Source of the DNA: a candidate division FCPU426 bacterium
GTDB taxonomy: Bacteria; Oederibacteriota; Muellerivitia; Muellerivitales; Muellerivitaceae
NCBI GenBank assembly: GCA_963738405.1
Contig: CAVTWJ010000020.1
Location: forward strand, 32,001-96,000
Direction: 5' to 3'
Length of the DNA stretch: 64,000 nucleotides
This document shows positions 8,169 to 54,660 of the stretch, one piece after another. The translations under genes and the position numbers were made by a program. Below the pieces are notes generated by a model, which saw only the letters and a program-made list of their open reading frames with translations, was not told the DNA's origin and searched no databases. Numbering within the stretch: position 1 is the first letter of the stretch; every line of letters begins with the position of its first letter.

Positions 8169-8319
8169 GTGAGATATCCTTGCCGCTTTAAACGTCTAAT
8201 GATTGGACGAACGACGGCGTTTATTTGTTTTCATCAACGGTCTTATTGTAATCAGGCTGGAGGGAGGTATGAAAATTCATTTCTTGAAGCCTTTTCAGGG
8301 GCGCGGGTATGATGCCCCG

Positions 8320-13000: not shown

Positions 13001-16000
13001 TCAAATACAGCTCGGCGGGGGCAGCGCTGTGGAACATGGAAGTGACGGCGTCAAACGGCGAAATGATCCAGGGCCTGGCCCTGGACCCCACCGGAACCTG
13101 GGTTTATTCCAACGGCTATTTCAACAACGGCGGCCACAACGTCGGGCGATTGCTGGAGTGGAACGCATCCTCAGGGGTCACCGTATGGGATACCGATTAT
13201 CCAGTTAACACCCTATCCACCTCCGGGACCGGCGTGGCGGTGGACGCCCAGGGCAATGTTTACACCGTATTGCAGGACAGCACGAACAACAAATTCCACA
13301 CCGTGAAATATGACCCCTACGGCAATTTGATATGGGACCTCCAATTTACCCGGGGCTTGGGGGTGGACCAATCGAACGCCCTGGCCTTGAACGGCTACGA
13401 CCTTTGGGTCACGGGCCAATCCTCCAATGGGGCCAACAATGACTTTTTAACGATGAAATATCAATTCAACAGCAGCTGCCCCTACACCGCTACCGTTACC
13501 ACTACCCCGACTGGCACGCCAACAGCCACGGCCACTTCCGTGCCCGTTTGCCCTGTTTCCCTGGTCAGCGCAGCCGCCACCTATACCAGCGCGGGCTCTG
13601 CCGTGACGCTCAACAGCGTCACCGTCAGCGGTACCAACCCTTTGCTTTTAGTCCAGGTGATTTTACAAACCAGTTCATCCATCGTGTCCTCGGCCAATTG
13701 GGGCTCTGCGCCGATGAGCCTGGTCCAGCGCAATTCGGCCAATGGGTTCGATCACGAGGTTTGGAAGATAGTGAATCCCAACCCCGGCACGGCCTCGGTC
13801 ACCATCCAATGCTCCAGCGGAGGGAATCCCTATGTGGGCGCCCTGGTTTACGCGGGGGTCAATGAAGCCAGCCCCATTGGGACCGTTAATTTTGTTACCG
13901 GAACCGGACCAAGCGCCACGGTCAACCTGACGGCCACCCAAAATTACAGCACTATCCTCGACCTTTTCAATTTCTATTTCGTCGGGTCCTCCACCCTGGC
14001 GGCGGGTCAAACCCAGCGTTGGACTGAGAATTTCGGGGGCTATACAAGCCTTGGGGACGACAAGTCCGCCGGGGTTTCCGGGGTTTATTCCATGGGTTAT
14101 ACCATCAGCGGCAGCACGCCCTGGGAAGCCCTGGCGGTCGAAGTTGAAGCGGCGGGCTGCGCAACCAACACGCCGACCCAAACACCCAGTCCAACAGTCA
14201 CCATTACTCCCACCATCACCCCAACCAGCGGCTCCAGTTGTTACGGCCCCATGGGCTATAACCAGCCTTCCGGAGGTTTTACCAATGCCGGCGGTTACAT
14301 CAATTGTTACGCGGTAAGCCTTTTGTCGGCTGTGACGGTGGTGGATTTTAATATCGATTTGGGACCCACGGTGCCGGCGACCATGGGGATAGGACTTTAC
14401 ACCAACGGGGCTTCCCAGCCCCTCAGCCTGCTGGCCAGTGTGGCCTTTGCGCCCAACGCCAATTCTTGGAATTCCGTTCCCATCGCCAACGTCACCCTTA
14501 ATCCGGGTCTTTACTGGTTGGCCTACAACATCACCAGTTCGGCAAGCGTTTCCTATGGGTCCTCGACTCCGGTGAGTGTTTACCAAATGTCCCAGTCTAT
14601 CTACGGCGCCTTGCCCACGACCATTTCCAACGGGGGTAATCCGGGTTTGATCGACCCGCCCGGCATTTACATGGATACCTATTGCTCCACCACGCCTACC
14701 CCCACCCTCACCAATACGCCTACTATCACCCCAAGTCCCGTAAACACCGCTACGCCGGGGTGTCCGGGCCCGATCGGGTTCAGCCAAACCCTCACCCCAG
14801 TGAACAATTTCAGCGGTAATTACATCGATTGCTACGCTGTGACGCTGGCCTATGGTGTGACCGTGACAGACTTTCAGTTTTACGTGGGCGCGACAGCCCC
14901 TGCTTCCATGATTTTAGGTCTGTACAACGACAACGGATTTTCCGAACCGCTCAACCTTCAAACAAGCGTGACCATCGCGCCTACGGCCAATTCGTGGAAC
15001 ACGGCACCCATTGGCAGTCTGACCCTAAACAGTGGTACTTACTGGCTAGCCTATAACGTCCCAAGTCTAGTCAATGATGACTATGGGGCTACCGGTTCCG
15101 TGACTTTCTATCAATTATCCCAGACTTTCGGTCCCGTCTTTCCCGCGACGATGCCGGTCACGGGAAATCACGGGTCAATCCAACCGCCTTCTTTCTATAT
15201 GGATACCTACTGCAACGTCACCGCGACCCCCACGCCGACGGTGACACTAACCGCTACGTTGACCCCCACGCTTACCCCCCTGCCGTCACTGGGCGTCAAT
15301 AACGCCTCCTCGAACGAGGGAAGCCCCCTGAATTTCATCATCTCCATTTTCCCGGCCGCATCGCAGGATGTGACCTTCCTTTGTTCTACAGCGGATGGGA
15401 CGGCTTTGGCGGGTACGAATTACACTCCCCTCAGTAATTTTCCGGTGACGATTCTGGCGGGGAACGCCAACGCTTTGGTGAACGTATTTACAACCTATAC
15501 GGCCGGGCAAAGCGCCCAATTGGCCATGACCTTGACCATTAGCAATGTCTCTTCCGACGCCTCCATCGGCACGGGAAGCGGGACTGGATTTATCAATTAT
15601 TTGGCGCCCACCGCCACCGGTACCCCCACGGTCACGCCGACCACAACGCCGACTGCAACCCTCACCCCCACCTGCGTCACAATGCCCCTTTCCGGCGTCA
15701 CTTATCCCAACCAGCCCTATGTCAACGTCATCACCTCCATCTCCGGCACGGGCACAGCCTATTGCGGGAGCCTGACCAACGTGCAAATCACGCTCCAGCG
15801 GCTTTCGGACAATTTTTATTGGAACCCGGTCATCCCCGGCTGGCAGTCGTCCCTCCTTTATTTGGCCACGTCGGGTTCTCCCTCCAACTGGAACTTTAAC
15901 AGTTCATCCATACCCTTCGTGAATGGCGCTTCCTATGAGGTCACTTCCCGGGCGCAGGACAGCTACAACAATACCCAAACCGTCTTCGCCCCCGTCAGCT

Positions 16001-18333
16001 TCACCCTTTGCAATACCCTGCCATTTCAAAACATCACCGCTCCCGTCAACGGCAATTCCTATTTGGCGTTGCTTTCCATTCAGGGCACGGCGGCCTCCTG
16101 CGCGCCGATCCCGACGCCCCAGATATTCATTCAGCGCCAAAGCGACGGATATTATTGGAACGGGGTCGCCTGGAGCCCCGCGGGCCCCCTCTGGAACCCA
16201 GTTTCCGGCTCAACCTCCTGGACCTACGGCAGTGTCCCTCTCTGGACACCGGATAATTACATTACCCAAACCAATATCTTGGTGGACGCGGCGGGGAATA
16301 CCGGTCCCCCCAGCGCGGCGGTGACCTTCTCCATCATCTTGCCGACAGCCACACCTACCGACACACCAACAGCGACCCTGACATTCACTCAGACCGCCAC
16401 GCCGACCTTTACTCAAACCGCTACACCGACGTTTACTCAGACTGCTACGCCCACCTTCACTCAAACCACAACCCCGACTTTCACGCAGACGGCAACCCCG
16501 ACTTTCACTCAAACGGCAACGCCGACCTTCACCCAGACGGCAACCCCGACATTTACCCAGACAGACACTCCGACCTTTACGCAAACCGCAACCCCGACTT
16601 TCACGCAGACGGCTACACCCACTTTCACTCAAACGGCAACGCCGACCTTCACCCAGACGGCAACCCCGACATTTACTCAAACCGCAACCCCCACATTTAC
16701 GCAAACGGCCACTCCGACCTTCACGCAGACTGCAACTGCAACCTTTACCCAAACTGCAACACCTACTTTTACTCAGACCGCCACTCCGACGTTTACTCAG
16801 ACCGCTACACCCACGTTCACTCAAACGGCCACACCGACCTTTACTCAGACGGCAACTCCCACCTTCACGCAGACTGCTACGCCTACTTTCACTCAAACAG
16901 CCACCCCGACCTTTACACAGACGGCAACTCCCACGTTTACACAAACAGCTACACCTACATTTACTCAGACCGCTACACCCACGTTCACTCAAACGGCGAC
17001 ACCAACCTTCACCCAAACAGCCACCCCGACCTTCACACAGACTGCCACTCCGACATTTACTCAGACCGCTACACCGACACAAACCCAAACCTTCACTCAA
17101 ACGGCCACACAGACCTTTACACAAACAGCCACACCCACCGCTACCCAGACCGCCACTCCGACGTTTACTCAGACGGCAACCCCCACATTCACCCAGACAG
17201 CTACACCGACACAAACCCAGACCTTTACACAGACATTCGTATTCACCGCGACGAAAACCGCGACGCTCACTTTCACGCAAACGGCCACTCCAACGTTCAC
17301 GCAGACTACTACCCCCACCTTTACCCAAACGGCAACACCTACTTTTACGCAAACAGCGACGCCAACCTTTACTCAGACCGCGACCACTACATCCACCCAA
17401 ACGGCGACACCTACTTTTACACAGACCGCCACTCCGACATTCACCCGGACGGCAACCCCCACCTTTACGCAAACGGCTACACCTACCTTTACTCAAACTT
17501 CAACACCGACCGCCACTCAAACGGCTACTCCAACCTTCACGCAAACGGCCACACCCACCGTTACCAAAACGGCGACCTTGACCTTTACCCAAACACAAAC
17601 CCCTACGGCTACCCAGACCGCCACAACCACCAGCACCCCGACTAACACCGGTACCGCCACCTCGACCTTTACCACTACTTCCACGCCCACGAATTCGCCC
17701 ACCGTGACTTCAACCAGTACGGTCACCTCTTCCCCCACGGTCACCCCCACGGCAACCCAAACCGCCACACTGACCGCGACCCAGACTCAAACCACGACCT
17801 TTACCCAGACTTCCACCTTTACGGCCGTTTTTTCTGCCACCCCCACTTGGACCCCGTCGCCCACCGGCACACCCACTCCCAGCTTTACGATTACACCTTC
17901 CCCAACTTACACCTCCACGGCCACGCCCACCGCCACTGGAACCCCGACCATTACCAATACTTCAACCTTCACCCCCACGATCACCTTTACGCCTACCATT
18001 ACCCTGTCGCCCACCGTTACCGGGTCGGTCACCAATACCCCCACGCCGGATGTGCCCATGTACCTGTCGGATAACTATTTCGACCCCAAGACGGGGGCGA
18101 CTTTGGGGATCGACGTGCTGATAACCCAGGGCGGGGGAGTGAAGATCATCGTTTGCAATATGCTGGGAGAAGAGGTGGATAAGCTGGTGGACCAGAGCCT
18201 GAGCCCCGGCAGTTTCCATTTCACCTGGGATGGGCGCAACCGCATGGGGGATATGGTGGGGAACGGCGTTTATCTGGTGGTGATTGAACAGCCTTCGGGC
18301 AATTTCATAAGAAAATGTATTATTTTGAAGTAG
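10060..18333 (+). CDS. Giant (2757 aa) secreted surface/adhesin-like protein: NHL repeats, SBBP-like propeller, tandem beta-sandwich modules, Calx-beta, Ig-like domains, Thr-rich stalk, FlgD-like/T9SS-type CTD
   Basis: Signal peptide; many [16 protein letters not shown] NHL repeats; [13 protein letters not shown] repeats; [13 protein letters not shown] (Calx-beta); C-terminal [16 protein letters not shown]...KCIILK. Confidence 0.88.
16381..17076 (+). repeat. Intragenic 24-nt tandem repeat, 29 consecutive units encoding TFTQTATP; degenerate units continue to ~17560
   Basis: Read directly from DNA and translation; synonymous positions vary between units. Confidence 0.95.
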
Positions 18334-30244: not shown

Positions 30245-30254
30245 AGGAAAGAAA

Positions 30255-33145: not shown

Positions 33146-33328
33146 CCCGCCCGATTCGCCTGGGCGTCTAAAAGACAGGCTTTTTCCTTTGGCCGGGAAG
33201 ACTCCCGGCCACCCCATAAAAAATGTGTAACAGAGGCGGGCGCATTGATCCTAACGCTGGTTTTAACCGTTGGTTTAAAACTAGTTTTGGATGAATAAAG
33301 AGAATTAATTCATTTTTTGGAATTCCAT

Positions 33329-40979: not shown

Positions 40980-41328
40980 AAAGGCACCTTTGGAGGAAGG
41001 CTCTCGATAAAAAGGCGCCTTCGGAATTGGAAAAGAATTGAGCGGGCCCTCCAAGAGGGGTCTCGAAGGGCAGTATAACATGCCGCAAGGATGGTGAACC
41101 GGATGAGGAGTTAGGCGTCCATTCGGGGCCGCTATCCGACGAATGGGTCGAAGTCAGCGGTTCTGAACCCGAGAGCAAGATATGCTTATATTATGTGAAA
41201 AGCTGGCGGCTTAAATCCTATCGAGGAAACGCCGGGGGGTTGTTATGATTTTTGCTCGGCATCGAGGAGATATTCCGGTTCAATGGACCGTGAAACCGCG
41301 CTTTTATTTCAAGGGTCTGGAAGAGTTC

Positions 41329-42477
41329 ATGAGTGAAGCCTGGAACCGTTTTTTTTCTCTCGACTTTGAGGAGCATTTTGCCCGTTCCTCGCTGAGATTG
41401 CTGGGGGTTTGGAACCCCCTTTGGACTTTCTTCGTGGGGCTTTTTTGGGGGGAGTGGGAGTTAGGTTCTTTTTTATTCCGCTGGGTCTGGGGGTTGGCCG
41501 AATCAACACTCGCCACCCTTGTCGCTTTACTGGTCATGGCACTATTCCGCTGGGCGGACCGCCGGGGATGGTGGAAAGCCCTGCCTTTCTTGGGACATCC
41601 TGGGGGCGGGCGGTATCTCATCCTCATGGCGGCCCTGGTTCCGCCTGGAATTATCCTGGCCCTGAGCGGAATGGTGGGGGCGATTAACCTGTTTTTTCCC
41701 GGGGATCCCATGGCCGCCCAATTCCACTGGGGCTATTACGGGAAGGGGGTTTTTGGCGGCTGGCTGTTGTTGCTGGTGTTTTTCCTTTTTAAATCCTGGC
41801 AGGACACGAGGGACGAGGCGAGGCTCAGTCAGTTGAGGGCCAGGGAATTGGAGAAAGAGCGTCTCCAAGCCCTATTGAACCAACTCAAGGATCAGATGAA
41901 CCCGCATTTCCTCTTTAATACGCTCAACACGGTCGCGGCGCTGATTCCTGAAAATCCCGCCAAGGCGGAACTGGTGGTGGTGAAACTTTCAACCCTCTTT
42001 CAGGGCATATTGGCCTCAACCCGCAGGACCCACCATCCTCTCGCCAAGGAATTGGAGTTTTGCGGGGATTACCTTGAGATTGAACAGGTTCGGTTTGGGA
42101 CCCGATTGAATTGGAAGGTGGAGCTGGACCCGAATTTGGACGCTCAAAAAATCGAGATTCCGGTGCTCTTACTTCAACCGATCGTCGAAAACGCCGTCAA
42201 ACACGGCCTTTCCTCCCTAGCGGCGGGCGGGACGGTTTGGATCAAGGCTTTGATCCATGAAGAATCATTGGAACTAACCGTTGAGGATGATGGCGTGGGT
42301 TTTGGGAAGTCGCCTTACTCAGGCTCCGGAACCGCCCTAGGCAATTGCCGTAAGCGGCTTGAACTCGCCTATGGCCCACAGGGCAGTTTGACGATTCAAA
42401 CGAGGGAAAGCGGCGGCACCCAAGTAACAATGAAATTGCCCGCCTTATCCGCGGGAAAGTTTGGAGGGGAAATATGA
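41329..42477 (+). CDS. LytS/YehU-type membrane sensor histidine kinase
   Basis: Multiple TMs; QMNPHFLFNTLN, LQPIVENAVKHG, DDGVG; start 41329 preferred (ORF track 41245). Confidence 0.93.
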   Translation: MSEAWNRFFSLDFEEHFARSSLRLLGVWNPLWTFFVGLFWGEWELGSFLFRWVWGLAESTLATLVALLVMALFRWADRRGWWKALPFLGHPGGGRYLILMAALVPPGIILALSGMVGAINLFFPGDPMAAQFHWGYYGKGVFGGWLLLLVFFLFKSWQDTRDEARLSQLRARELEKERLQALLNQLKDQMNPHFLFNTLNTVAALIPENPAKAELVVVKLSTLFQGILASTRRTHHPLAKELEFCGDYLEIEQVRFGTRLNWKVELDPNLDAQKIEIPVLLLQPIVENAVKHGLSSLAAGGTVWIKALIHEESLELTVEDDGVGFGKSPYSGSGTALGNCRKRLELAYGPQGSLTIQTRESGGTQVTMKLPALSAGKFGGEI

Positions 42478-43223
42478 TTCGTGTTCTTTTAGTGGATGAT
42501 GAGGCGCCTGCCCGCGCCCGGCTGGCGAGGCTCCTGGCGGATATTTCGGATATACAGGTCGTGGGTGAATCTTCCAACGGCCTGGAGGCTCTGACGGCGG
42601 CCCAGGAACTCAAGCCGGATTTGGTGTTTCTGGATATTGAGATGCCCGAACTGAACGGCTTGGAAGTGGCCGAGACCTGGGCAGGGAACGGACCCGCGGT
42701 GGTTTTTGTGACCGCCTATACAGAACACGCCTTGAGGGCTTTCGAGGTTTCGGCCCTCGATTATTTGGTGAAACCCGTGGCATCCGAAAGATTATTGGAG
42801 GCTTTGGAAAAAGTGCGCAAGCAGAAGGCGCAACCGGGTTTGGAACAATTCCAATCTTTCTTGGAAAAATTCCAAGAGAAAAAAGTGAAGCGCCGTATGG
42901 CGATCAAATGCGGCTCCAAATACCGGGTTTTGGACCCGGAAAAGGTGACGGCTTTGGTGGCGAAGGACCATTACGCCGCCCTGTTGGTGGAAGGTCAGGA
43001 AATATTTTGCGACGACAGCTTGGATCATCTGGCTCAAAGACTGGATCCCTCCCGTTTTTTGAGGATTCACCGCGGAGCCGTGATCAATCTGGATTTTCTT
43101 AAGGAACTGGAGCATCAAGGGGACCGGAAATACTTGGCGGTCCTTTCCGATGTCGCTAAAACCAAGCTGCCCGTCAGCCGGGAAAGGCTGGACGAGTTAA
43201 AGGAAAGGCTGGGTCTTGGATAG
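42474..43223 (+). CDS. LytTR-family response regulator
   Basis: VDDE, FLDIEMP, FVTAY, DYLVKP; LytTR FLRIHRGAVIN and PVSR. Confidence 0.95.
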   Translation: MIRVLLVDDEAPARARLARLLADISDIQVVGESSNGLEALTAAQELKPDLVFLDIEMPELNGLEVAETWAGNGPAVVFVTAYTEHALRAFEVSALDYLVKPVASERLLEALEKVRKQKAQPGLEQFQSFLEKFQEKKVKRRMAIKCGSKYRVLDPEKVTALVAKDHYAALLVEGQEIFCDDSLDHLAQRLDPSRFLRIHRGAVINLDFLKELEHQGDRKYLAVLSDVAKTKLPVSRERLDELKERLGLG

Positions 43224-46200
43224 GATTTTTTTTTCTCATGGCTCCAGACCCTTCAAGTGGGCCCTGCTTATCTTTTTGGCGGTGGTTCCGCCGGGGTTTG
43301 CCCAAACCCCGATTTCAACCCCGGCCACACCTGATCCCAACTTAAAAACTTTAAGTCCAGGGGAAGAAATCCAGATTCTCCAAGCGATTGATTCCCAGAA
43401 TAAGGGCTCGGGGTCAACGACCCTCGACCCTTCCGGCCCCATTACGACCGTGCAAAACCAAACCAGCCCGGTTTCCACTCCCGGGGCCGGTCAGCCGATC
43501 GCCTCGCCCGTTATTCCTTCATCAACCGTGACGGTCTCCGCTCCCGCAGGACCGCCCCCGATTCCGACGGGTCTCAGTGTTTTGGTCCTAAAAGAAGGCG
43601 TTTATCTCGCGTGGGACGCGTCCTCTCCTTCCGCTAGCACGGTTTCTTACAATGTTTACCGTTCGACAACCCCTGGTACGGGGTACCGGCAAATCAACCT
43701 GAGAACCCAGACTGCGCCCTATTTTCTCGACGGGGTCCCCTCCAGCAGTTCACCCCCTAAAAACGGCGAGAATTATTTTTACGTAGTGGCGGGCGTAGAT
43801 TCACAGGGGCGGTTAAGCGATTATTCGGATGAGGTTTTCGTTGCGCCCCTGGGAATGGAAATTCCCGAAACGGCGGAAGAAAAGGCCGAAGAGGCCAAAA
43901 ATGGTGCCGTGACCGGGGCGCCTAAGGAAACGGAACAAGAACTCAATATCCCTGAGCAAAAAATCGTAAATCTACAGCTTCCGGCCGATACCCAGCTTTC
44001 CATTCAGGGCTATAAGAAGATCGAGGCCGATTTTTCGTTCCAACACTTCACCCACCCGCAGGGCAGCAGCGCGTCCGACAACAATACCACCCTGGTGAAC
44101 CAGGAGATGGTTGTGAACTTGGAAGGGAAGGTTGGGAAAAATGTGGATGTGCATGTCGACTACAGTGATGTCAACCGGGCGGGAGGGGTGGACCAAAGCA
44201 AACAGGAAATTTCAATCGTGTACCACGGTGAAAGCGACAGCCCAGTTCAGGAAGTGGCTTTTGGCGATTTGCAGATGAACCTTCCCAACACGGAATTCGC
44301 GGGTTTCAGCAAACAGCTTTTTGGGCTTCAGGCCAAGTTGAAATTTGATAATTTCCGGGTCACCTCCTTTTTCGCCCAAACCAAAGGTATCGCGGAGACC
44401 CGGGTGTTCAACGGCAACACGGGGCAGGTGGATAAGGTTTTCAACGACATTGATTACATCAGGGAAAGATATTTTCTGATTACCAAAGAATTCATTCCGA
44501 GCGTCAACGCGGGGGTCACCCAAAACCTGGCCCTGCCCCAGCCGAACAGCGAACAAATTTGGGTCAATGCCGGGACGGGTCAGTCCGTTTTTGCCATTGG
44601 GAATAATTTTATCGGGCCCTATGAGCACTGGCTTCCGGGCCGGGACTACACCATCGATTACAACACTGGCATCATTACCTTTATTAGGGCCTTATCGACC
44701 AGCGCCCAGATTGTGGTGGGCTTTACCAACAAGAATAACGTCAACCACGGCTTGAACGTTTATGGGACGACCCCCGCGAGCATCACTCCCATTTTAAGTA
44801 ATTCCAATGATATTGCCCAATTCCAGGTTCCTCCAACAGGCATCATTGATGATCCCAAATTCGCTCCCTTCGACATTTTGATCAAGAACAACAACAACAC
44901 CACCAGTTCCCTTTATTTGGTGAATTATTTCGACTTGGGCCGGGACAAGATTATTCCCCCCCAGCAAGACCCTAATTTCGTTTTTCAAGTCGTGGATCAG
45001 GGCACTAACAACGTGCTGCAGACCGGGCAGGGAGGTTTGGGAAGTTCTTCGGCACCCTGGGCCTTTGTCATGAATCAGGATTTCAACTACCTGGTGGTCA
45101 GCAATATGAACAACGCTAATGTGACTGTTTCCGCAGGGGTGACGGCCAATTTCGCGGAAAGGGCTTTCGTGGACCCCAACGTCGACCCCGCCCTTGGCAC
45201 CTCCGCGAACGGCATTTACGATGAAGTGACGGTTCCCAACAGCCTCAAGCGGATTCACTTGGTCTATAAAACCCAGCTCAATTATTTTCAGCTCAATCGA
45301 TTTAACATTATCCGCGGTTCGGATACGGTCTTTTTGGACGGGCGAAGATTGCGCCGGGATGTGGATTACACTTTGGACTATACTTCGGGTTTTCTCGATT
45401 TTCCGGATAAAAGCATATTGCGCCCTGACAGCCAATTGGTGATTTCCTATGAATACGCCCCTTTTGGTTCCTTTAACCAAAACAACATATTGGGAACTCG
45501 GATCGAATACGACGTCAACGATCACCTGTTTATTGGGTCCACCTTTTTGAATTCCACAAGCCAACAACCCCAGGATATGCCTCAAATCGGCTCCACTCCT
45601 GATTCGCTGACGGTACTCGACGCGGATTTCAAATACGATTTAGGCCAAGATGATTTGCAGAACATCACTGGTCTTATTCCCGGCCTTTCTGATTGGAAGC
45701 CGCCGGTGAGTGTCAAGATTTCCGGTGAAATTGCCGAAAGTTATTTCAATCCCGATACCTATAACATGCAGGGGGAACAAGGCGTTGCCATGGTCGATAA
45801 CATGGAGGGCATCGATAATAACAGTGGGCCCAATATGAATTCGGCCAATTGGATCGCCTCCTCCGAACCCCAACCGGTGGGCTTTTTGGGGAATACGACT
45901 TATGACAGCAGTGACACCCCGGCCAATAACCGTATCCGTTTCAGAAACGGCCCCGTCACTTTCGGGACAGCTCCTGTTACCTCAACTATACCTGGCGCGG
46001 GCGGCCATATTTTCGCCGGAGTTTTGGGTGGTTCGGGTACCAATAATGAACCGGACGCCATTCCAGTGCTTCAGGTGCCCTATGCCAATCTCACGAATCA
46101 GACCTGGGGGGGTGTCAGGCAGACCCTCTCTGCCACGGGCCTGGATCTTTCCAACACCAATTACATGCAGGCTTGGGTCTATAACGACGGCAACCCGAAG

Positions 46201-49122
46201 TGGATCATGATGGATTTTGGCGTCATGAGCGAAGCCAATAATGTGGACCAGAGCGAAGCAATCGAGGCGGAGCAGCTTCCCCTGACACCCGCGACGGATA
46301 TAGGGCTTTTAACCAATTATTTCATCCCGGGAGGAGGCGTTTCACAAGTGGGAGGTTCCGGAATTTCGATCACTGACGAGCCCAATGGAACCCAGGAGGG
46401 AGCCAATAACAACATCCTCGACACGGAGGACACCAATGCCAACGGAATTTTAGATACCCAAGACGCCTATTACGAATATGGAATTCAAGCGAACTGGAAG
46501 GGATGGCAGATCGTCAAAATACCCGTTAATTTCACCCAGCCGGACGGCATCTATCAGACGGATCAACAGGTGAATTATTTTTTTCACACCCAAAGCCCAT
46601 TCGCGACTCCTTCCTTGATTCGGACGATTAGGTTTTGGATGACTGGACAATCGGCCGCTCCCACGAGCGGTTACGTTCTGTTTGAAAACATCCAATTCAA
46701 CCGAAATCTCTGGCAGTTACAGGTCGACCCGACAGCCAATATCAATCAGGGGGTGACGGTTAATACCAGTAAATTTGACGTCAATTCCATTAGTCAGGAC
46801 CAGGACCCGGGGTATGTTGCCACTGACCGGTTCATAGTTATTCCCCAAGGGACGTCTGATTCTTCCATTCTCGCAAAAGAAAAAGCCCTAAAAATCACCT
46901 ACAACCTTTCCTCCGCGGACTTTAATCCACCCGGTGACGTGTCCGGGGAACCCATTTATTACGCGACCCGCTATTTCAACCAGGGTGTGGATTTTACGGA
47001 TTACTCAAACCTTGCCATGGATATTTATGTCCGGACCCCCAATGTCCAACCTGGTGAAATCCTTTTTATGCGTATAGGAAATGACCAACAGAATTATTAC
47101 CAATACAACATGCCCCTTTTGTCCCAGTACGCGGGGGGATGGAATACCATTTCGGTGCACATCGACGGCTCGGACGGCAACCGACAGACCGTCGGCACCC
47201 CCTTCATTAACCGTGCAACCCAGATCAGTTTTGGCGTCCTTTCTCCCAATCCCCCCAACGGCCTGACAAAGGAAATTTGGATCAATAACCTGCGGACAAA
47301 TAACCCGAACCAGAGGTCCGGCTTGGCCCGTCGTGCCAACGCCGCTTTTGTACTTGGCAACAACTTTGCGACGGTTAATACCCGATACCGGGAGGTGGAC
47401 TCGGGTTTCACCCAAATCGACCAAACTTCAAATCATTTTCAACATTCCACTCAATATGGGGTGGACTATACTTCTAACGCAGTAAGCGTTTTTGGGCAGC
47501 CCTTGGCGACCCAAATGTCCTACACCAACCAAGACAACTACACCGAAGCGGCTCTTCTGCAAAACCCCTATTACAGCGCTTTGCCCCATACCCAATCGGA
47601 AAATACAACGGGGTCCATTACCTATACAAAAGACTTAGGAGCCGCTTGGGGCCGTTTGACGAATGTTCGTGTCTCCGAAAGCACCTACTCGGAGAACGAC
47701 ACCTACCAATCCGCATACCTTTCTCAGCCTGGCATTCAGGGGGACACACAAAAAGGGAATCAAACCTATACGGTTGCCTCTACCTACGACGCTCCCACCC
47801 AACTGTTCGGTTTTCCGGTTGGTTCCAACCAATTTTCGGAGACGGATATCCTAACCATCGATACTCAAAACTTTTCCAATTCCTCTCAGCCCCTTGTGCC
47901 CTACAGTCGAACCACAAAAAATCAGACCTACGGCTGGACCAACACCACCGAAATATTCAAGAACCTCATTTTTACGCCGGGATATAACCTAAATCTGGTG
48001 GACGCAGTGGGGAACACGAATTCGCCTGGCGTGGCCGGTAGCGTGACTCAATTCACCAATTTCCAGGAAAGGGACCAGCCCAAGGGAGGGTTAACCTACC
48101 GGGGAATTCCCGGGGTCATACCGGCTGTGAACTATACCGGTTCGGAGCAGATTGACAATGTCAGCTACACGGAGGGTCCCCGGCTCAACAATTCCAACAG
48201 CATCAATTATTCCCTGAATCTTTCTCCGTCACTTTGGTGGGATCCCTTCCAAAAGATTGGGTTGACGGCCTTTGCGGGCCGAACGGAAAGCGCGTCAGCG
48301 GCGATCCCCAATTTCCGGGCGGTCCGACCCTTGAGTTTTCAGGAGATATGGCTGATCGCCCCGCCGAACGATATCGCCTTGAATTCGACCAAATCCCTTA
48401 CCGATCAGATCAATTTCAGTTTCAGGCTTTTTGATTTCTGGGACTTCAAACCCACGGGGTCCTGGACCACCCAGTTCAACCTGTTGTCGGCCGGAACCAA
48501 CCCGGTGGAACAAGACAGTGATACCCTTGGTTTTACAACCGTCTTCAACCATAAACTCGCCACTTTGCCTTACCTAAACTTTGGGTTGGATTCCGCCCAA
48601 TTCCAGTACACCCGCACCGATTCAACGCAATGGGACACCCAAAGCCCGCCCCAGATTTCAGGCCAGACGACCAATGAAACCTATTCTTTTACGGTTCCCT
48701 ACGACATCGCCCAATTAGCCACTGGGAATTTTCATTATCAGCATATGGACGGTTTTACCAACACCAGCGGTATTCTGACGACCCAGTTGGATGACCAAGC
48801 CTCGGTGGAGTACAACCAAAAATTTCTCGAAAACACAATTCTGCACATTCCCTTTACCCATTGGAAAATAAAATTTGATCAGGCGATCGAATTGCGCCTC
48901 GTGTTTTTGACGGAGATCGTGAATAACGAAAGCCCGGCCTACCAGCTCAACGATCTTCAGACCGAAAGGTATCGTGGTACACTCACGTTGAATTACAACG
49001 CTTTGAAGAATTTAAGGGTCGGCTTGGGCGGGGTCTACGAGGTATTTGACGAGGACAAACCCTATCAATACTTAAGTTACGACATGTGGCAGATTAATAT
49101 TTCCGGCGAAGCGAGATTTTAA
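43216..49122 (+). CDS. SprA-like giant outer-membrane beta-barrel (T9SS translocon homologue) with N-terminal FN3-like domain
   Basis: Signal peptide; SprA-like blocks VNLEGKVG...ISIVYHGESDSPVQEVAFGD...LFGLQAKLKF, GSDTVFLDGRRLRRDVDYTLDY, GEIAES...AMVDNMEG, DTEDTNANG, EIWINNLR; amphipathic strands; terminal Phe. Confidence 0.75.
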   Translation: MDRIFFSHGSRPFKWALLIFLAVVPPGFAQTPISTPATPDPNLKTLSPGEEIQILQAIDSQNKGSGSTTLDPSGPITTVQNQTSPVSTPGAGQPIASPVIPSSTVTVSAPAGPPPIPTGLSVLVLKEGVYLAWDASSPSASTVSYNVYRSTTPGTGYRQINLRTQTAPYFLDGVPSSSSPPKNGENYFYVVAGVDSQGRLSDYSDEVFVAPLGMEIPETAEEKAEEAKNGAVTGAPKETEQELNIPEQKIVNLQLPADTQLSIQGYKKIEADFSFQHFTHPQGSSASDNNTTLVNQEMVVNLEGKVGKNVDVHVDYSDVNRAGGVDQSKQEISIVYHGESDSPVQEVAFGDLQMNLPNTEFAGFSKQLFGLQAKLKFDNFRVTSFFAQTKGIAETRVFNGNTGQVDKVFNDIDYIRERYFLITKEFIPSVNAGVTQNLALPQPNSEQIWVNAGTGQSVFAIGNNFIGPYEHWLPGRDYTIDYNTGIITFIRALSTSAQIVVGFTNKNNVNHGLNVYGTTPASITPILSNSNDIAQFQVPPTGIIDDPKFAPFDILIKNNNNTTSSLYLVNYFDLGRDKIIPPQQDPNFVFQVVDQGTNNVLQTGQGGLGSSSAPWAFVMNQDFNYLVVSNMNNANVTVSAGVTANFAERAFVDPNVDPALGTSANGIYDEVTVPNSLKRIHLVYKTQLNYFQLNRFNIIRGSDTVFLDGRRLRRDVDYTLDYTSGFLDFPDKSILRPDSQLVISYEYAPFGSFNQNNILGTRIEYDVNDHLFIGSTFLNSTSQQPQDMPQIGSTPDSLTVLDADFKYDLGQDDLQNITGLIPGLSDWKPPVSVKISGEIAESYFNPDTYNMQGEQGVAMVDNMEGIDNNSGPNMNSANWIASSEPQPVGFLGNTTYDSSDTPANNRIRFRNGPVTFGTAPVTSTIPGAGGHIFAGVLGGSGTNNEPDAIPVLQVPYANLTNQTWGGVRQTLSATGLDLSNTNYMQAWVYNDGNPKWIMMDFGVMSEANNVDQSEAIEAEQLPLTPATDIGLLTNYFIPGGGVSQVGGSGISITDEPNGTQEGANNNILDTEDTNANGILDTQDAYYEYGIQANWKGWQIVKIPVNFTQPDGIYQTDQQVNYFFHTQSPFATPSLIRTIRFWMTGQSAAPTSGYVLFENIQFNRNLWQLQVDPTANINQGVTVNTSKFDVNSISQDQDPGYVATDRFIVIPQGTSDSSILAKEKALKITYNLSSADFNPPGDVSGEPIYYATRYFNQGVDFTDYSNLAMDIYVRTPNVQPGEILFMRIGNDQQNYYQYNMPLLSQYAGGWNTISVHIDGSDGNRQTVGTPFINRATQISFGVLSPNPPNGLTKEIWINNLRTNNPNQRSGLARRANAAFVLGNNFATVNTRYREVDSGFTQIDQTSNHFQHSTQYGVDYTSNAVSVFGQPLATQMSYTNQDNYTEAALLQNPYYSALPHTQSENTTGSITYTKDLGAAWGRLTNVRVSESTYSENDTYQSAYLSQPGIQGDTQKGNQTYTVASTYDAPTQLFGFPVGSNQFSETDILTIDTQNFSNSSQPLVPYSRTTKNQTYGWTNTTEIFKNLIFTPGYNLNLVDAVGNTNSPGVAGSVTQFTNFQERDQPKGGLTYRGIPGVIPAVNYTGSEQIDNVSYTEGPRLNNSNSINYSLNLSPSLWWDPFQKIGLTAFAGRTESASAAIPNFRAVRPLSFQEIWLIAPPNDIALNSTKSLTDQINFSFRLFDFWDFKPTGSWTTQFNLLSAGTNPVEQDSDTLGFTTVFNHKLATLPYLNFGLDSAQFQYTRTDSTQWDTQSPPQISGQTTNETYSFTVPYDIAQLATGNFHYQHMDGFTNTSGILTTQLDDQASVEYNQKFLENTILHIPFTHWKIKFDQAIELRLVFLTEIVNNESPAYQLNDLQTERYRGTLTLNYNALKNLRVGLGGVYEVFDEDKPYQYLSYDMWQINISGEARF

Positions 49123-49162
49123 GATGGCTTTTTCACTGGGAAAGGGAAGGGGATATGAAGTG

Positions 49163-52100
49163 ATGGGGCGTAAACGAAATCTACTTACCGCGAATGCGGC
49201 CCTTTGGGTGGCGCTTTTGGCCCATTTTGGACAGTGCCAATCCCTTCCCGCCCCGACAGGTCTTGCGGCAACTCCTGGAAACGGGGTGGTCAATCTATAT
49301 TGGAACCCTCTGCCATCGGCCACGGCCTTTTTCATTTATCGGGACGAATATGGAACACCGACCTATAGCTTTACCCCAACGCCCAGTTTTACCCCTACTT
49401 TTACGGGTTCGCCAACCGATGCGACGACCGACACGACGACCCCGACCTATTCTCCGACCGGAACTCCCACTCCGCTGGCCACGGTTTTGGCCTCGGGCCA
49501 AGCTTCCTTAACCGATTTTCAGGTAGTGAATGGTGATTCCTATGTTTATACCGTCTTGGGGTTAGATTCTTCCGGTAATTTAGGCGCTCCCGCCACAACG
49601 GTCGTTAACCCTTTCGCGCCGCCCCAGGCCATCTCAACTTTAACCGTCCAGCCGCTCCATGCAGGGGCTTTGGATCTTTCCTGGCCTCTCCCTCTTTCTT
49701 CATACCCTGTGACAGGTTACGCCATCTATCGCTTGGCCATCACCTTTACTCCGAATCCATCGGGCACGCCTACGCCCACACCCAGCTTTACTCCAACGCC
49801 CTCTTATACCCCGACCGTCACCTTTTCCCCGACCCTTACCCTGCCCGCAGGAACCTATACCTCCACCCCTGGCAATACCTATACCTTTACCAATACCTTT
49901 ACCCCCACCATAACTTCATCGCCAACGCCCAGCTTTACCCCCACCGCAACTTTTGAACCGACGCGCATACTTGCTTCGGATGTTATTTCCCAAGGGGCAT
50001 TGATCGGAAATTCCTCAGGCACATCTTTTTCGGACCAGCCTCAGCCCTTGGGCCCAGGGGAATATTATTACGTGGCAATCGCGGAAGACGCGAACGGTAA
50101 CCCCGGGGCTATCCCAACCTATTCCAGCATTCCTAATTGCCCTCAATTGTCAAAACCCTTTGCCCCGGCCTTGTCGGGGAATTTAATCTTATCGGTTACC
50201 CCGACGCCCACCAATGGAATGCTTTATGGGGTTAGGCTTCAATGGACGGGACCCTTGGCTTCGGAAGGAGTGACGGCTTACCAGGTGTTTGCAAACGGAA
50301 CGCCCCTTGCGACGGTGGTGGTCAGCCCAACGCCTCAGGTGACCTGTGTTTATGACGATCAAAGCGTCCCCTATTCAGCAAGCCAGGCCAACCAAACCCA
50401 ATACTCGGTAGCGGCGGTTAACGGTAATGGGGCGGTGACATCCAATTCCATTTCAGAAAATATTTATGAGCCTATTCTTTATGGGCCGATCCAAGTCACC
50501 CCGGTAGCTGCCGCCAATAACGTCACCATCAGTTGGAATCAGGCCCTGCCGGGGACCTATGGACTGGCCGGGTATCAAATATTCAAAAGCTCAAACGGTA
50601 TCCCTGGGACAGGCACCCAATCACCCACTCCCTTGCCCATGGCCAATATTGGCATTACGCCGGGAGTCACGCCGACTTTGGTTTATGTGGATTCGCCCGT
50701 TACCAACGCCTGGGGGCTCAGTTATTGGGTTCAGCCCTATGCGGCCGTGACAACCGGAGGTGTTTTTGCGGGGGCGACACCCTCTTTATTAGATATCGGC
50801 CCTACTCCTGTCGCGACGGTATCCGTTGCGGTAACCACTGGAAACAATGCATTCGCGGTGACTTGGTCTGGGGCTGAAACCGGTTTTTACGGAACTCCGG
50901 TGGCTTACAAGGTCTACCGGGAATACACAAACGCCTCCAGCCCCACGCCGGTGGCGACAGTGTCTTATTCCCAAACAAACTATACCGATTACGCGAATGG
51001 GGTTTCCCTGAGCACCAGCATGAACTATCAGGTATCGGTTTTGGATCATTTAGGAAATCCATCCGATCTTTCACCATTTTCTAATGCTGTGGTTTCATCC
51101 TCCGCTTCCGCGCCGGGTCTTCCCTTGCAGCCCTTTGGGTTGCCGGTGCTGGGTGGCCCCATTACTCTGACTTATTCCTGGCTGTTGAACCCTCTTTCGG
51201 ACGGGGTAACGGCTTACAACCTATATGGGCCTGATTATTTAACTCCAGCCCCCAACACCCCTACGCCCGTGGCTATCTATGCCCCAACCACCACTCCCAC
51301 CTTTGAGGTTCCGGCCACGCCTTGGGCGGTGAATAACTATTATGTCGTGGCGCAGAATCAAACAGGGAATAGCACGCCCACGAACCTTTCAAGCCTTGCC
51401 GTATCCCAATACTCGGTTTCGGCGGGTGTTCCTGTTCCGACCCAGGCCGTGACCCTCTCCTGGAATTTTACCGTACCTACGACTACCCCGGCGCCTCTTG
51501 ATAGCTTTGATGTTTACCGATCGGTGACCCAGGGGTCGCAGTTTACTTCTCTGGCGGTTGTTCCTTATCCAACCATGGTTTATACGGACAATACGGCTTC
51601 GGCGGGCCAATCCTTTTATTACCGGGTAACCGCAAGGTCAAACGGGGTTGAAAGCTCTTTGTTTCCCGACATGACACCGGCACCCGAGGCAGGGGCCTTT
51701 ACTTGGCCCAACGCTCCGGCCAGCCTATTGGCCAATGGGGCGGTTTCTGAAACTACTCTTACCTGGGTTTCTAACCCTGTAACAGAAGGAGTGCAATTTT
51801 ATACGGTGTACCAAAACGGAACGCCTGTCGCCACGGTGACTCCGGCGCCTGTTTCGGTCCTTAATTCGGTAACCGTTCCTGATTTTCCGGGCGCTGGAAC
51901 GGGATATCAGGTTGTGGCTCAAAGTCCAGAGGGCAATTCATCAGCGGCCCCGGCTTCCGTTTTGCTTTCTTTTAGTTCGGGGCCGATCCTCGACCTGACG
52001 CCCCCTCCAGGATTTACCCCGACGCCTAATGTCACCCCAGCTTATCCACCGGGCGTCTGGGTTTCGGGCTTCACTTTTAGTTCAAATCCGGCTGACGGCG

Positions 52101-53923
52101 GAGTGAATTCCTATACCATTTATCGAAGCATTAATCCTACACCCACCTCCACCTGCGTGACTTGTTGGAGCAATGTAGGTTCTGTTTCTGCGCCGACCTC
52201 TTTAACCGCTGCCACGCCCGTATTTGTGGATACAAACGCAGTCAGTGGCTTTACCAATTACTACCAGATCGTTCCCCAGAATGGTTTCGGATTGCAGGGA
52301 AATCCCAATCCGCAAACCGGGGTTTCAATCACTTATTTTCCAGCCGCTCCCGCAAGCTTTATAGCTCAACCCTCTGCATCTGCCATCAGCCTGGCCTGGG
52401 CTCCGGTCGGAAATGCTCCCGTGACCGGTTACGACATTTATCGAAGCACGGCTGCTTTCGCCCATATGACCCAACTAGCGGGCCAACTGGCCGTAACAAC
52501 CTATACCGATAACGCTGTGACTTATGGTTCAGCCTATTTTTATTGGGTGGATGCGGGAGCCCAAGGGGTTACCAGCGCTCCGGCCAGCGTGACCGCCCTA
52601 GCTGTATCCGCGCCCACCCTCTTTTTAACACCTGGCGCCGCCATGAATAACTTGGCCTGGAACCCGGTCGAGGTGCCCACCGGAAGCCCTGTGTCGGGCT
52701 ATTCCATCCAAAGCGAGACCTTTCCCGCTACACCGGTTCCCAGTCAGACTCCAGGATTCACTCCCATCGGTCCCGCCATTGTGGAAGGATTGAATAACAC
52801 GACCTATGCCGACACAAGCGTGTCCGATCCCAATTCTTACGCCTACCAGGTCGCTGTAGCGGCACCCAATCCCTGGGGAGGAAGACCCATTTTGGGACCC
52901 TTTTCCAACCCGGTGAGCGTGATAGTGTTGCCTTTGCCGGTCGCCAATTTGGAGGCGGTGTCTGGAGATGGCTTGGTTCAATTGCGTTGGAACTACCAAG
53001 GCAACCAAAAATTTACTTATACCATTCAACGAAAGTTGGGTTCGGCTCCTGTTTCGGCTTATCAAACCATCAAATCCGGGTTTCAAGGCATCAATTACAC
53101 CGACACGGGAGTTTTGAATAAAACACTTTATGATTACCAGATTTATAGCGTGGATGCCTCGGGATTGTCCTCCTCCGCCGCGATGGTTCAGGCCCTGCCC
53201 GCCGAGCCGCCCTATGTTGGAAACACAAAAGTATCTCTCGCTCAAAGTCAGCAGGGGGATCAAACGGGGAATCAATTGACTTGGGCTCCAGCAAATAACC
53301 CCGCCACTTATCCATACTTTGATCCGACCAAAATGTATCCCTTGGGAGGATATTATGTTTATCGGTCTTCCGATGGGGGGGGGACTTACCAGTTGGTTAC
53401 GGTGGTGCCAAGTTCCCAGGGAACTACCCAAACCTCTATTAGCTATTTTGATCCGGTTCAACTGGTAAACGGTTCGGCCTATACCTATTTGGTCTGGGCT
53501 TTTGACCAACCGGCGGGCGTGAATACGAGTGAAGTCAATATGGTTCACGAGACGCCCTATACCCCCATAACTGCTTTTCCATTGACGGCTGGGGCGGCGC
53601 TGGATCGTAATGCAATAAGGCCCAATGGCGCTTTGGATGAACAGTCCGTCGGGATACGGTTTGTGGTGACAAGTCCAGGTAAGGTGGAAATAAAAGTTTA
53701 TTCCCTGTCGGGGACTTTTATCAAAACTATCTTAAGTGACCCTAATGTTCGTGTTGGAGTTTGGGGCACCTATCGCATTAATGGAACCTTGAATGACAGT
53801 GACTATCATGCTTCCTGGGACGCGCGCAATATGCAGGGGAATCTGGTCGCGTCAGGTGTCTATCTGATAACGGTGGAAATGAACGGGCACCAAGAAATTG
53901 ATAAAGTGGCAGTTATTAAGTAA
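49163..53923 (+). CDS. Secreted fibronectin type III repeat protein with Thr/Pro linkers and FlgD-like/T9SS-type CTD (alternative start 49124)
   Basis: Repeated P..L.A...V.L.W...Y.IYR...YTD...Y.Y.V modules; C-terminal VYSLSG...WDARNMQGNLVASGVY...KVAVIK. Confidence 0.85.
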   Translation: MGRKRNLLTANAALWVALLAHFGQCQSLPAPTGLAATPGNGVVNLYWNPLPSATAFFIYRDEYGTPTYSFTPTPSFTPTFTGSPTDATTDTTTPTYSPTGTPTPLATVLASGQASLTDFQVVNGDSYVYTVLGLDSSGNLGAPATTVVNPFAPPQAISTLTVQPLHAGALDLSWPLPLSSYPVTGYAIYRLAITFTPNPSGTPTPTPSFTPTPSYTPTVTFSPTLTLPAGTYTSTPGNTYTFTNTFTPTITSSPTPSFTPTATFEPTRILASDVISQGALIGNSSGTSFSDQPQPLGPGEYYYVAIAEDANGNPGAIPTYSSIPNCPQLSKPFAPALSGNLILSVTPTPTNGMLYGVRLQWTGPLASEGVTAYQVFANGTPLATVVVSPTPQVTCVYDDQSVPYSASQANQTQYSVAAVNGNGAVTSNSISENIYEPILYGPIQVTPVAAANNVTISWNQALPGTYGLAGYQIFKSSNGIPGTGTQSPTPLPMANIGITPGVTPTLVYVDSPVTNAWGLSYWVQPYAAVTTGGVFAGATPSLLDIGPTPVATVSVAVTTGNNAFAVTWSGAETGFYGTPVAYKVYREYTNASSPTPVATVSYSQTNYTDYANGVSLSTSMNYQVSVLDHLGNPSDLSPFSNAVVSSSASAPGLPLQPFGLPVLGGPITLTYSWLLNPLSDGVTAYNLYGPDYLTPAPNTPTPVAIYAPTTTPTFEVPATPWAVNNYYVVAQNQTGNSTPTNLSSLAVSQYSVSAGVPVPTQAVTLSWNFTVPTTTPAPLDSFDVYRSVTQGSQFTSLAVVPYPTMVYTDNTASAGQSFYYRVTARSNGVESSLFPDMTPAPEAGAFTWPNAPASLLANGAVSETTLTWVSNPVTEGVQFYTVYQNGTPVATVTPAPVSVLNSVTVPDFPGAGTGYQVVAQSPEGNSSAAPASVLLSFSSGPILDLTPPPGFTPTPNVTPAYPPGVWVSGFTFSSNPADGGVNSYTIYRSINPTPTSTCVTCWSNVGSVSAPTSLTAATPVFVDTNAVSGFTNYYQIVPQNGFGLQGNPNPQTGVSITYFPAAPASFIAQPSASAISLAWAPVGNAPVTGYDIYRSTAAFAHMTQLAGQLAVTTYTDNAVTYGSAYFYWVDAGAQGVTSAPASVTALAVSAPTLFLTPGAAMNNLAWNPVEVPTGSPVSGYSIQSETFPATPVPSQTPGFTPIGPAIVEGLNNTTYADTSVSDPNSYAYQVAVAAPNPWGGRPILGPFSNPVSVIVLPLPVANLEAVSGDGLVQLRWNYQGNQKFTYTIQRKLGSAPVSAYQTIKSGFQGINYTDTGVLNKTLYDYQIYSVDASGLSSSAAMVQALPAEPPYVGNTKVSLAQSQQGDQTGNQLTWAPANNPATYPYFDPTKMYPLGGYYVYRSSDGGGTYQLVTVVPSSQGTTQTSISYFDPVQLVNGSAYTYLVWAFDQPAGVNTSEVNMVHETPYTPITAFPLTAGAALDRNAIRPNGALDEQSVGIRFVVTSPGKVEIKVYSLSGTFIKTILSDPNVRVGVWGTYRINGTLNDSDYHASWDARNMQGNLVASGVYLITVEMNGHQEIDKVAVIK

Positions 53924-53952: not shown

Positions 53953-54660
53953 TTGAGCACCCCGCTCTGGAATAAAAAGTTAAAGTGCCCTTTTTGCGCG
54001 TTTGAATTTGAGACGACCCGGTTACGTTCCTCCGTCATCAAGATTAAGGAAAAACAAACTGATTTCGGAAACGTCTATGATGGGGAATGCGCCTATCTGT
54101 ATGCCGTTACGGTTTGTCCCCAATGCACCTTTGCGGCTTTAAATAAGGATTTTGATACCGTCCGCGCCGGGGCCGAGCCAATGATTATGGAAGTCTGCCG
54201 GCAGATAAGCCAATCGGCCAAAAAGAAACCTGAAATCTTCGCCTTAGGATCCTCCACGCCCGAAGTGGCCATTAAACGGCATGAAATGGCTATCACCTTC
54301 ATGAAGATACGAAAATATGGGGATTTAAGTACCCTGGCGGGTTTGTCCCTTCATTTGGTCTGGATATACCGGTTGATGCAGGATTACGACAATGAAAAAC
54401 GGGCCTTGGCTCAGGCAGCTAAAGCCTACGAGGAATATTTTGACAAGGGAAGCCGGTTGCCGGAAAACCTGGGCGAGCCTGGGGTGCTTTATTTAATTGG
54501 CGAATTGTACCGGCGGCAGGGCTTATTTAAAGAAGCCAGACGTTTTTATGAAAGGGCATTGGCCAGCAAGGAAATTAAAGCCTTTCCCCGCATCGCTGAA
54601 ATGACGAGGGATATGATGTTTGCCGCGAAGCAGCAAATGGAAATGACAGGTACGGATTAG
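53953..54660 (+). CDS. DUF2225 family protein (zinc ribbon plus TPR-like helices)
   Basis: CPFC...VCPQC; YLIGELYRRQG..EARRFY. Confidence 0.85.
   Translation: MSTPLWNKKLKCPFCAFEFETTRLRSSVIKIKEKQTDFGNVYDGECAYLYAVTVCPQCTFAALNKDFDTVRAGAEPMIMEVCRQISQSAKKKPEIFALGSSTPEVAIKRHEMAITFMKIRKYGDLSTLAGLSLHLVWIYRLMQDYDNEKRALAQAAKAYEEYFDKGSRLPENLGEPGVLYLIGELYRRQGLFKEARRFYERALASKEIKAFPRIAEMTRDMMFAAKQQMEMTGTD

Follow-up and report, generated by a model that had tools for sequence, protein, structure and literature searches.

A short-clade SprA-like protein as a candidate outer-membrane translocon of a type IX-like secretion pathway

SprA is, to our knowledge, the largest known single-chain outer-membrane barrel. 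For SprA of Flavobacterium johnsoniae, the closest described counterpart of the protein considered here, the accessible part of PMC10994853 reports a barrel of 36 strands, an extended N-terminus, needed for transport, that is gripped by SkpA, and a release of substrate from SprA that requires energy input. Here we compare with it a shorter SprA-like protein, encoded at 43216..49122 in a 64,000-nucleotide stretch of contig CAVTWJ010000020.1 (positions 32,001 to 96,000, forward strand; this whole stretch is called the window). We propose, with a probability of roughly three in four, that the gene encodes the outer-membrane translocon of a type IX-like secretion pathway.

The secretion system of type IX (T9SS) is described as a feature of Bacteroidota or of the Fibrobacteres–Chlorobi–Bacteroidetes (FCB) group in the portions available of PMC11205867 and PMC10994853, and as restricted to Bacteroidota plus a small number of FCB phyla in those of PMC11285876, PMC4793230 and PMC11205867. 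The same partial texts report T9SS genes in several FCB phyla (PMC11285876) and one survey that met the system among Bacteroidetes alone, where 60 of 97 genomes had it (PMC4793230). The literature covered, which included few subscription journals and no supplements, gave no description of a short SprA clade, nor of SprA or T9SS outside the FCB group or in candidate phyla; PMC11495043 makes no mention of T9SS.

Sequence, fold and clade of the SprA-like protein

The gene and the predicted layout of its product are as follows.

43216..49122, + strand: SprA/Sov-family outer-membrane translocon homologue of the short clade, 1968 residues (TIGR04189, phmmer, hhalign, Foldseek)
43216..43305, + strand: predicted signal peptide, residues 1-30, cleavage between GFA and Q (by inspection: basic n-region, WALLIFLAVV core)
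43555..43845, + strand: putative Fn3-like domain, about residues 114-210, in the family-specific N-terminal module (family profile against PDB)
43918..47391, + strand: core homologous to canonical SprA, residues ~235-1392, which takes in the cap domains, the initial barrel strands and every motif block listed below (hhalign, AlphaFold, Foldseek)
47269..49113, + strand: C-terminal series of about 26 predicted long beta-strands, residues 1352-1966, up to the invariant C-terminal Phe (DSSP on the AlphaFold model, Foldseek)

The open reading frame (ORF) begins with TTG. The first-pass annotation had recognised a divergent, shorter SprA from a set of motif blocks and a terminal Phe, and every one of these is located in the protein: LEGKVG at residue 302, YSDVN at 316, EVAFGD at 346, LFG at 368, GSDTV at 701, GRRL at 709, DVDYTLDY at 715, GEIA at 837, VDNMEG at 860, DTEDTNANG at 1069 and EIWINNLR at 1353. 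In a 45-row superfamily alignment the blocks coincide with conserved blocks of canonical SprA. The protein ends in ...GEARF, and all 31 of 31 family sequences share F1968.

Against TIGR04189, the SprA equivalog of NCBIfam, the protein scores 238.1 bits (E 1.4e-70; curated cut-off 200) in four separate stretches that cover only part of the 2319-position model; all eight close family members tested also lie above the cut-off, at 203.6-252.4 bits. A phmmer search of the PDB returned solely F. johnsoniae SprA, matched in collinear blocks (6H3I/6H3J, E 1e-20), and a profile of 31 family members matches the solved SprA at E 9.7e-26. When the family was aligned with 26 canonical SprA proteins by hhalign, the probability was 100% (E 1.6e-56) over 1086 columns, with family positions 235-1392 corresponding to canonical 168-1571. 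Judged by the TIGR04189 and phmmer E-values, chance resemblance to SprA is excluded. Collinearity with the solved SprA is detectable in sequence for residues ~235-1392, and undetectable for residues 1-234 and ~1393-1968.

The fold was modelled with AlphaFold on two overlapping pieces (alignments of 35 and 41 sequences). The C-terminal piece, residues 769-1968, has a mean predicted local distance difference test score (pLDDT) of 82.4, with blocks mostly at 85-96 across the last 600 residues, and DSSP assigns it 26 strands of 10-19 residues between residues 1352 and 1966. The other piece, residues 235-1434 (pLDDT 76.7), agrees with it in the overlap. It has four long strands in residues 259-337, followed by five shorter ones up to residue 410, and another four strands in 756-846. 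The candidate strands thus total 34-39, counted on separately folded halves with closure and lateral opening outside view, a number compatible with a 36-strand barrel. A crude amphipathic-strand scan was dropped, as its counts swung from 12 to 27 with the threshold, and DSSP on the models was used instead.

Both halves match F. johnsoniae SprA first when the models are compared with the PDB by Foldseek. For residues 769-1968, SprA chains take the first four places (E 8.9e-41 to 8.3e-32, TMq 0.47-0.50), after which the fifth match falls to 2.9e-5; the best is 8gl8_A (E 8.9e-41, TMq 0.50, 1660 columns). For residues 235-1434 the top four are again SprA (E 9.8e-47 to 4.7e-34, TMq 0.39-0.46), led by 8gl6_A (E 9.8e-47, TMq 0.43), with the fifth at 1.5e-6. 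The last ~550-575 residues, an orphan in sequence, have a SprA-like fold in the model, and since the alignments span 1600-1660 columns, this C-terminus would superpose on the C-terminal barrel of SprA; the Foldseek output comes without residue ranges. Taken together, the models predict a very large capped transmembrane beta-barrel resembling 6H3I. The score above the curated cut-off, the profile-profile comparison and the predicted fold all agree with the first-pass description of the protein as a divergent, shorter SprA.

At the N-terminus, the assignment of the Fn3-like domain comes from a match of the family profile, at positions 91-189, to the Fn3-like protein 3MPC (E 6.2e-6). Gln stands at +1 after the predicted cleavage site (GFA/QTP), and it recurs in most intact family N-termini (...GWGQT, ...ARGQT, ...FAQT). 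This recalls the "Q-rule" of Bacteroidetes given in the available text of PMC5837995; the rule is followed neither by the Skp nor by the beta-helix protein encoded in the window.

A homologue search yielded 36 close relatives, all metagenomic, at 44-100% identity and 1087-2045 residues, the full-length ones having 1820-2045; a gap lies between them and the canonical SprA proteins of 2300-2517 residues. Where named, these relatives are called "hypothetical protein", a source name that two family members bear. The C-terminal module has 38 matches in 1.84 billion representatives, and these are the family, fragments of it, and "intermediates" of 2084-2207 residues, in which the module is C-terminal too. 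All 15 intermediates or module carriers tested match TIGR04189 (152-562 bits), while among the more distant members of the short clade three of 12 (P0358, P0359 and P0351) reach its cut-off. Because most of these more distant members fall under the curated cut-off, such proteins are easily left unannotated.

Trees of 45 proteins were built on a fast alignment with FastTree (1499 columns) and with the quick mode of IQ-TREE (1224 columns). They divide 17 rows (canonical SprA with P0038 and P0039) from 28 rows (the family, the intermediates, L014 and L015) with a support of 100. On these alignments, the SprA-like protein belongs to a distinct clade of shorter SprA, of about 1,880-2,210 residues against 2,300-2,510 for the canonical proteins.

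Two observations concern single loci of the clade. L015 (contig SBAY01000072.1) and L014 encode near-identical short-clade proteins of 2017 and 2019 residues at a tree distance of ~0.13; their metagenome-assembled genomes (MAGs) are labelled "Nitrospira sp." and "bacterium", on contigs of only 7-8 kb with unverified binning. At L007:9860-20719, the SprA-like gene and its downstream gene are split into ORFs of 944, 756, 181, 182, 147 and 1137 residues, which may reflect assembly frameshifts or real decay.

The operon and its candidate cargo

The SprA-like gene lies in a conserved block together with two regulators and a large secreted protein, and a second candidate cargo protein is encoded further upstream.

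41245..42477, + strand: LytS-type sensor histidine kinase, first gene of the conserved block (His_kinase PF06580, E 3.3e-23; HATPase_c, E 8.9e-11)
42474..43223, + strand: response regulator with a LytTR DNA-binding domain (Response_reg, E 1.1e-22; LytTR, E 7.9e-20)
49124..53923, + strand: conserved partner and candidate principal cargo, a 1599-residue secreted Fn3-like repeat array with Pro/Thr linkers and a tail like the type A C-terminal domain (CTD) of T9SS cargo
53564..53920, + strand: CTD-like sorting tail of that protein, its last 119 residues (TIGR04183, PorZ and PorU C-termini)
53953..54660, + strand: downstream DUF2225 (zinc-ribbon/TPR) protein (PF09986, E 9.1e-39)
10060..18333, + strand: second candidate cargo, a 2757-residue NHL-repeat protein (NHL, E 4.3e-25) with a CTD-like tail at 17974-18330

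The genes of the block are tightly packed. The end of the regulator gene and the start of the SprA-like gene share 8 bases, a Shine-Dalgarno-like site, GGAAAGG, precedes the TTG, and the ATG of the downstream gene comes one base past the SprA-like stop. In related MAG loci the order is lpx, lptFG, kinase, regulator, SprA-like gene, Fn3-CTD protein, small protein and glycolysis genes. An ORF of ~430-480 residues occupies the kinase position in nine of these loci (L001-L005, L007, L009, L011 and, partially, L010), and the ORFs found there have counterparts in the window; an ORF of 248-250 residues stands immediately upstream of the SprA-like gene in L001-L004, L007, L010 and L011. In eight loci (L001-L006, L011 and L012) the SprA-like gene is directly followed by an ORF of more than 1400 residues, and in all eight this is an orthologue of the 1599-residue protein, of 1408-1635 residues. 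The ORFs of 235-254 residues that come after the Fn3-CTD gene in L001, L005, L011 and L012 have window counterparts and are, by size and position, putative DUF2225 orthologues. In L002 (3811-5049) and L003 (3956-5203), an ORF of 412-415 residues between lpxI and lptG has neither a Pfam or NCBIfam match nor a window counterpart.

The tails of the two giant neighbours were compared with known sorting domains. On TIGR04183, the type A CTD model, the tail of the 1599-residue protein scores 22.2 bits (cut-off 23; E 1e-4) and that of the 2757-residue protein 19.8 bits (E 5.8e-4), and both also match the C-termini of PorZ and PorU. All nine aligned tails match TIGR04183 at E<=0.01, the best at 5.9e-7. 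A profile of the nine finds the CTD of PorZ in the PDB (5M11, residues 666-758 of 758, E 3e-7) and PorU (6ZA2, E 1.4e-3); it also matches FlgD immunoglobulin (Ig)-like domains, which share the fold, and the window tails score equally well on FlgD models. For the 2757-residue protein, FlgD_ig gives 27.0 bits (cut-off 27) on the whole protein and 31.5 bits on the tail alone. Among atlas neighbours, the 1599-residue protein keeps company with fn3 proteins that have FlgD_ig, Por_Secre_tail or CHU_C tails, which serves as a lead only. The final motifs of the window tails resemble what we take to be the type A CTD pattern. At the distant locus L014, a protein with a CTD that exceeds this cut-off (27.9 against 23) is encoded ahead of the SprA-like gene.

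Because the SprA-like gene has CTD-tailed proteins encoded beside it, in a pairing that is conserved, the pore very probably serves T9SS-type export, as the first-pass annotation had supposed. We propose that the protein is exported by Sec and forms a capped beta-barrel of about 36 strands that belongs to the SprA/Sov family. Its gene would be co-transcribed with the upstream LytS/LytTR two-component system, which presumably controls the operon, and with the downstream gene for the large Fn3-repeat surface protein. The Ig-like sorting domain at the C-terminus of the latter would then direct this protein through the pore and onto the cell surface, and the CTD proteins would be the substrates that the pore actually exports.

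Several results weigh against this proposal. No Pfam family matches the SprA-like protein at E<=0.01, SprA_N (PF14349) included; precomputed PF14349 matches occur in two of the 36 close relatives listed (P0002-P0037), P0030 and P0032. The SkpA-binding N-terminus is undetectable by hhalign (family 1-262 against canonical 1-185, probability 0.3%), and the sequence link fails at the C-terminus as well (family 1380-1968 against canonical 1540-2385, probability 0.2%); the family's C-terminal HMM, run against 29 canonical or near-canonical proteins, matches only within its first ~65-80 positions. The strand total comes from halves folded apart, and the superposition of the C-terminus from alignments whose residue ranges are not given. 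Both window tails narrowly miss the curated TIGR04183 cut-off. Finally, neither porV, porK/L/M/N, gld, porU nor porZ was found in 44 window ORFs (38 searched with Pfam, six more small ORFs with NCBIfam), and in 15 related loci, where flanks of up to 10 kb gave 126 ORFs, the CTD protein of L014 is the only T9SS component.

Some of these results would also suit a repurposed barrel, that is, a giant outer-membrane protein derived from SprA that no longer translocates CTD proteins and acts, for instance, as a structural or uptake pore: both termini are divergent, SprA_N is unmatched and the CTD tails stay below threshold. The cap and core motif blocks are retained, however, and the pairing with a CTD-tailed protein is kept in eight loci and seen again at the distant L014, so that we consider such a change of function very improbable.

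Partner genes and the position of the lineage

The features of the window that bear on the rest of the machinery and on the host are these.

1485-3545: CheA
3466-4146: CheC/CheX
4226-5434: GGDEF protein
21331-21687, 33317-33694 and 33691-34068, + strand: three small PilZ-type ORFs (TIGR02266, 35-42 bits against a cut-off of 68.7)
35738-37045, + strand: fused LpxC-FabZ (NF009667, 445 bits, just under the cut-off of 465)
31462-31804, + strand: transfer-messenger RNA (tmRNA), tag peptide ADNQLALAA (Rfam RF00023, 173.9 bits)

The CheA/CheC, PilZ and GGDEF context described earlier is present, with the PilZ-type ORFs below threshold. TIGR02266 is a paralogous family of Geobacter and Myxococcus, and two of the three window ORFs stand in tandem. 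The tmRNA is the only Rfam-type RNA gene in the 64 kb, which hold no rRNA and no tRNA. At 29336-30665 (+), a pyridoxal-phosphate-dependent cysteine-synthase-like gene is followed by a JAMM "desampylase"-like gene (82 bits against a cut-off of 130), a pair reminiscent of sulfur-carrier-protein-dependent cysteine synthesis.

The first-pass annotation had noted that no porV, porK/L/M/N or gld gene is visible in the window, and the ORF scan agrees. Four candidates for PorV/PorP barrels (17-1273, 6618-8168, 8203-9114 and 19429-20208) were rejected, none being barrel-like or having a family match. One of them, 6618-8168 (-), encodes a 516-residue predicted lipoprotein with an LQGC lipobox-like motif and a long low-complexity C-terminal half rich in Gln, Pro, Asn and Ser, with no match to a Pfam or NCBIfam family. 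Of the 126 flanking ORFs, 109 are counterparts of window genes, and the other 17 comprise no T9SS component except the L014 CTD protein.

From the missing partners it had been concluded that the machine may be reduced or differently energised, and that conclusion is not supported. TXSScan models four T9SS components as scattered loners, according to the available part of PMC4793230, and because T9SS genes are scattered over genomes, their absence from 64 kb is uninformative. The carrier PorV, the motor GldLM/PorLM, the ring and the attachment complex are presumably encoded elsewhere in the genome. A short-clade SprA with adjacent cargo that works without the GldKLMN/PorKLMN motor and ring, or without PorV and SkpA, could account for the Fn3 module that replaces the N-terminal SkpA-binding module, for a C-terminal third that is strongly remodelled and ~250 residues shorter, for the lack of T9SS partners within the window and in the flanks of related loci, and for the cargo gene conserved within the operon, where model organisms have sprA as a loner. 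Yet the genes scanned offer no positive sign of an alternative energiser, and substrate release from the F. johnsoniae protein, as noted above, needs energy; with the window's silence on scattered genes, we regard a reduced system as improbable.

In which lineage does this pathway reside? The annotation had placed the genome outside Bacteroidetes, in another lineage. Shine-Dalgarno-like motifs precede 18 of 41 window ORFs, against a background of 12%, and such motifs and chemotaxis genes are, as far as we know, lacking in Bacteroidota. The topoisomerase TopA has lineage relatives at 78-96% identity, several of them on contigs that equal the SprA contigs in length; at 46-53% the organism-named matches are Thermodesulfobacteriota, Schekmanbacteria, Nitrospirota, Oligoflexia, Anaeromyxobacter and Nitrospira, and no FCB name, Bacteroidota included, occurs among the matches listed (at least 120). 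In the narrow sense that the genome is not from Bacteroidota proper, then, the chemotaxis genes, the Shine-Dalgarno-like motifs and the TopA matches listed support the earlier placement. The TopA ORF itself (22034-24604, +, GTG start, 856 residues) is ~75 residues longer than most close relatives (777-815 residues, 88-92% coverage), and the true start is probably further downstream.

A position outside the whole FCB group is another matter, as the markers conflict. TopA points away from the group, and so do the labels of the family loci, of which three of 13 read "proteobacterium" and none names an FCB taxon; the ranks in NCBI titles are "Pseudomonadota" three times and "Nitrospira" once, and we do not trust these ranks as placements. 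The LpxC-FabZ fusion points the other way. Its relatives are all fused among the matches listed (at least 120), and the nearest organism-named ones outside the lineage are a member of a Gemmatimonadota cluster (47% cluster) and a Cloacimonetes MAG (45%), which NCBI places in its FCB group; such a fusion is known from Chlorobium in the available text of PMC516016. In the atlas, the SprA C-terminus and the Fn3-CTD protein have neighbours that are mostly Gemmatimonadota, Eiseniibacteriota (incertae sedis at NCBI) and Bacteroidota; these are leads only.

It may therefore be, and we hold the chances to be about even, that the lineage is an FCB member or a close relative with a complete canonical T9SS elsewhere, and that the gene is its lineage-specific SprA orthologue with the same mechanism. 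The LpxC-FabZ relatives and the atlas neighbours favour this, as do the T9SS genes already reported in several FCB phyla, whereas TopA (evidence from a single gene), the labels of the family loci (evidence from labels) and the three PilZ paralogues of Geobacter/Myxococcus type, all sub-threshold, disagree with it. Because the mechanism stays the same, only the taxonomic novelty would fall away.

Alternatively, a non-FCB lineage might have acquired a cassette of SprA and cargo from an FCB donor by ancient horizontal transfer. TopA is not FCB-like, in contrast to the FCB-like neighbours of SprA, CTD and LpxC-FabZ, and SprA, cargo and regulators make one compact block. That block, however, sits between lpx/lpt and glycolysis genes, in the same order in eight loci whose SprA proteins are 44-77% identical, so that any transfer would predate the diversification of the lineage. 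There is no anomaly of composition either, the GC content being 0.50-0.53 over 40-52 kb against 0.50-0.57 for the whole window, and in the trees the clade stands apart from canonical SprA on a branch with full support, with no nesting inside it. We find a transfer of this kind unlikely.

A bolder proposal is that the short-clade SprA represents a type IX-like pathway in a deep lineage outside the FCB group: a self-contained, regulated operon whose translocon, ancestral or independently simplified, dispenses with the SkpA-docking N-terminus, and of which a relative occurs in the MAG labelled Nitrospira. We put this forward tentatively and with more doubt than confidence. If true, it would overturn the statement that non-FCB phyla lack T9SS genes and give a handle on the origin of the system; should the host prove to lie outside the FCB group, the known phylogenetic range of T9SS would widen.

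The SprA-like locus beside known systems

For the proposed type IX-like translocon, the value of a second, well-separated SprA clade is that it tells indispensable parts from replaceable ones. The clade retains the strand series along with the motifs of cap and core, and the parts that appear to be replaceable are the N-terminus that binds SkpA and the loop-rich sequence of the C-terminus. Since many clade members sit below the curated HMM cut-off as "hypothetical protein", T9SS-like systems of uncultured soil lineages are probably under-counted in surveys. In addition, the conserved operon is a compact and testable unit, in which a LytS/LytTR system accompanies a single dominant Fn3-array cargo candidate.

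The candidate cargo tails resemble type A CTDs (TIGR04183; PorZ 5M11 and PorU 6ZA2) in that those of both giant neighbours align to the very C-terminus. They differ in being sub-threshold (22.2 and 19.8 against 23) and in fitting FlgD Ig-like models equally well.

The translocon itself is closest to F. johnsoniae SprA (6H3I, 6H3J, 8GL6, 8GL8), which leads the structural matches of both halves by at least 27 orders of magnitude in E-value. In sequence the two proteins are collinear through the cap domains, the opening barrel strands and the beginning of the C-terminal strand series, and they share a signal peptide (predicted here), a long run of membrane-length strands and CTD-tailed proteins encoded nearby. 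In contrast, the SprA-like protein is ~435 residues shorter (1968 against 2403) and has an Fn3-like domain and linkers where the SkpA-binding segment would be. Its last ~575 residues are unrecognisable in sequence, and it falls into a separate clade with a support of 100. Finally, unlike its F. johnsoniae counterpart, the SprA-like gene shares its operon with genes for a two-component system and a cargo-like protein.

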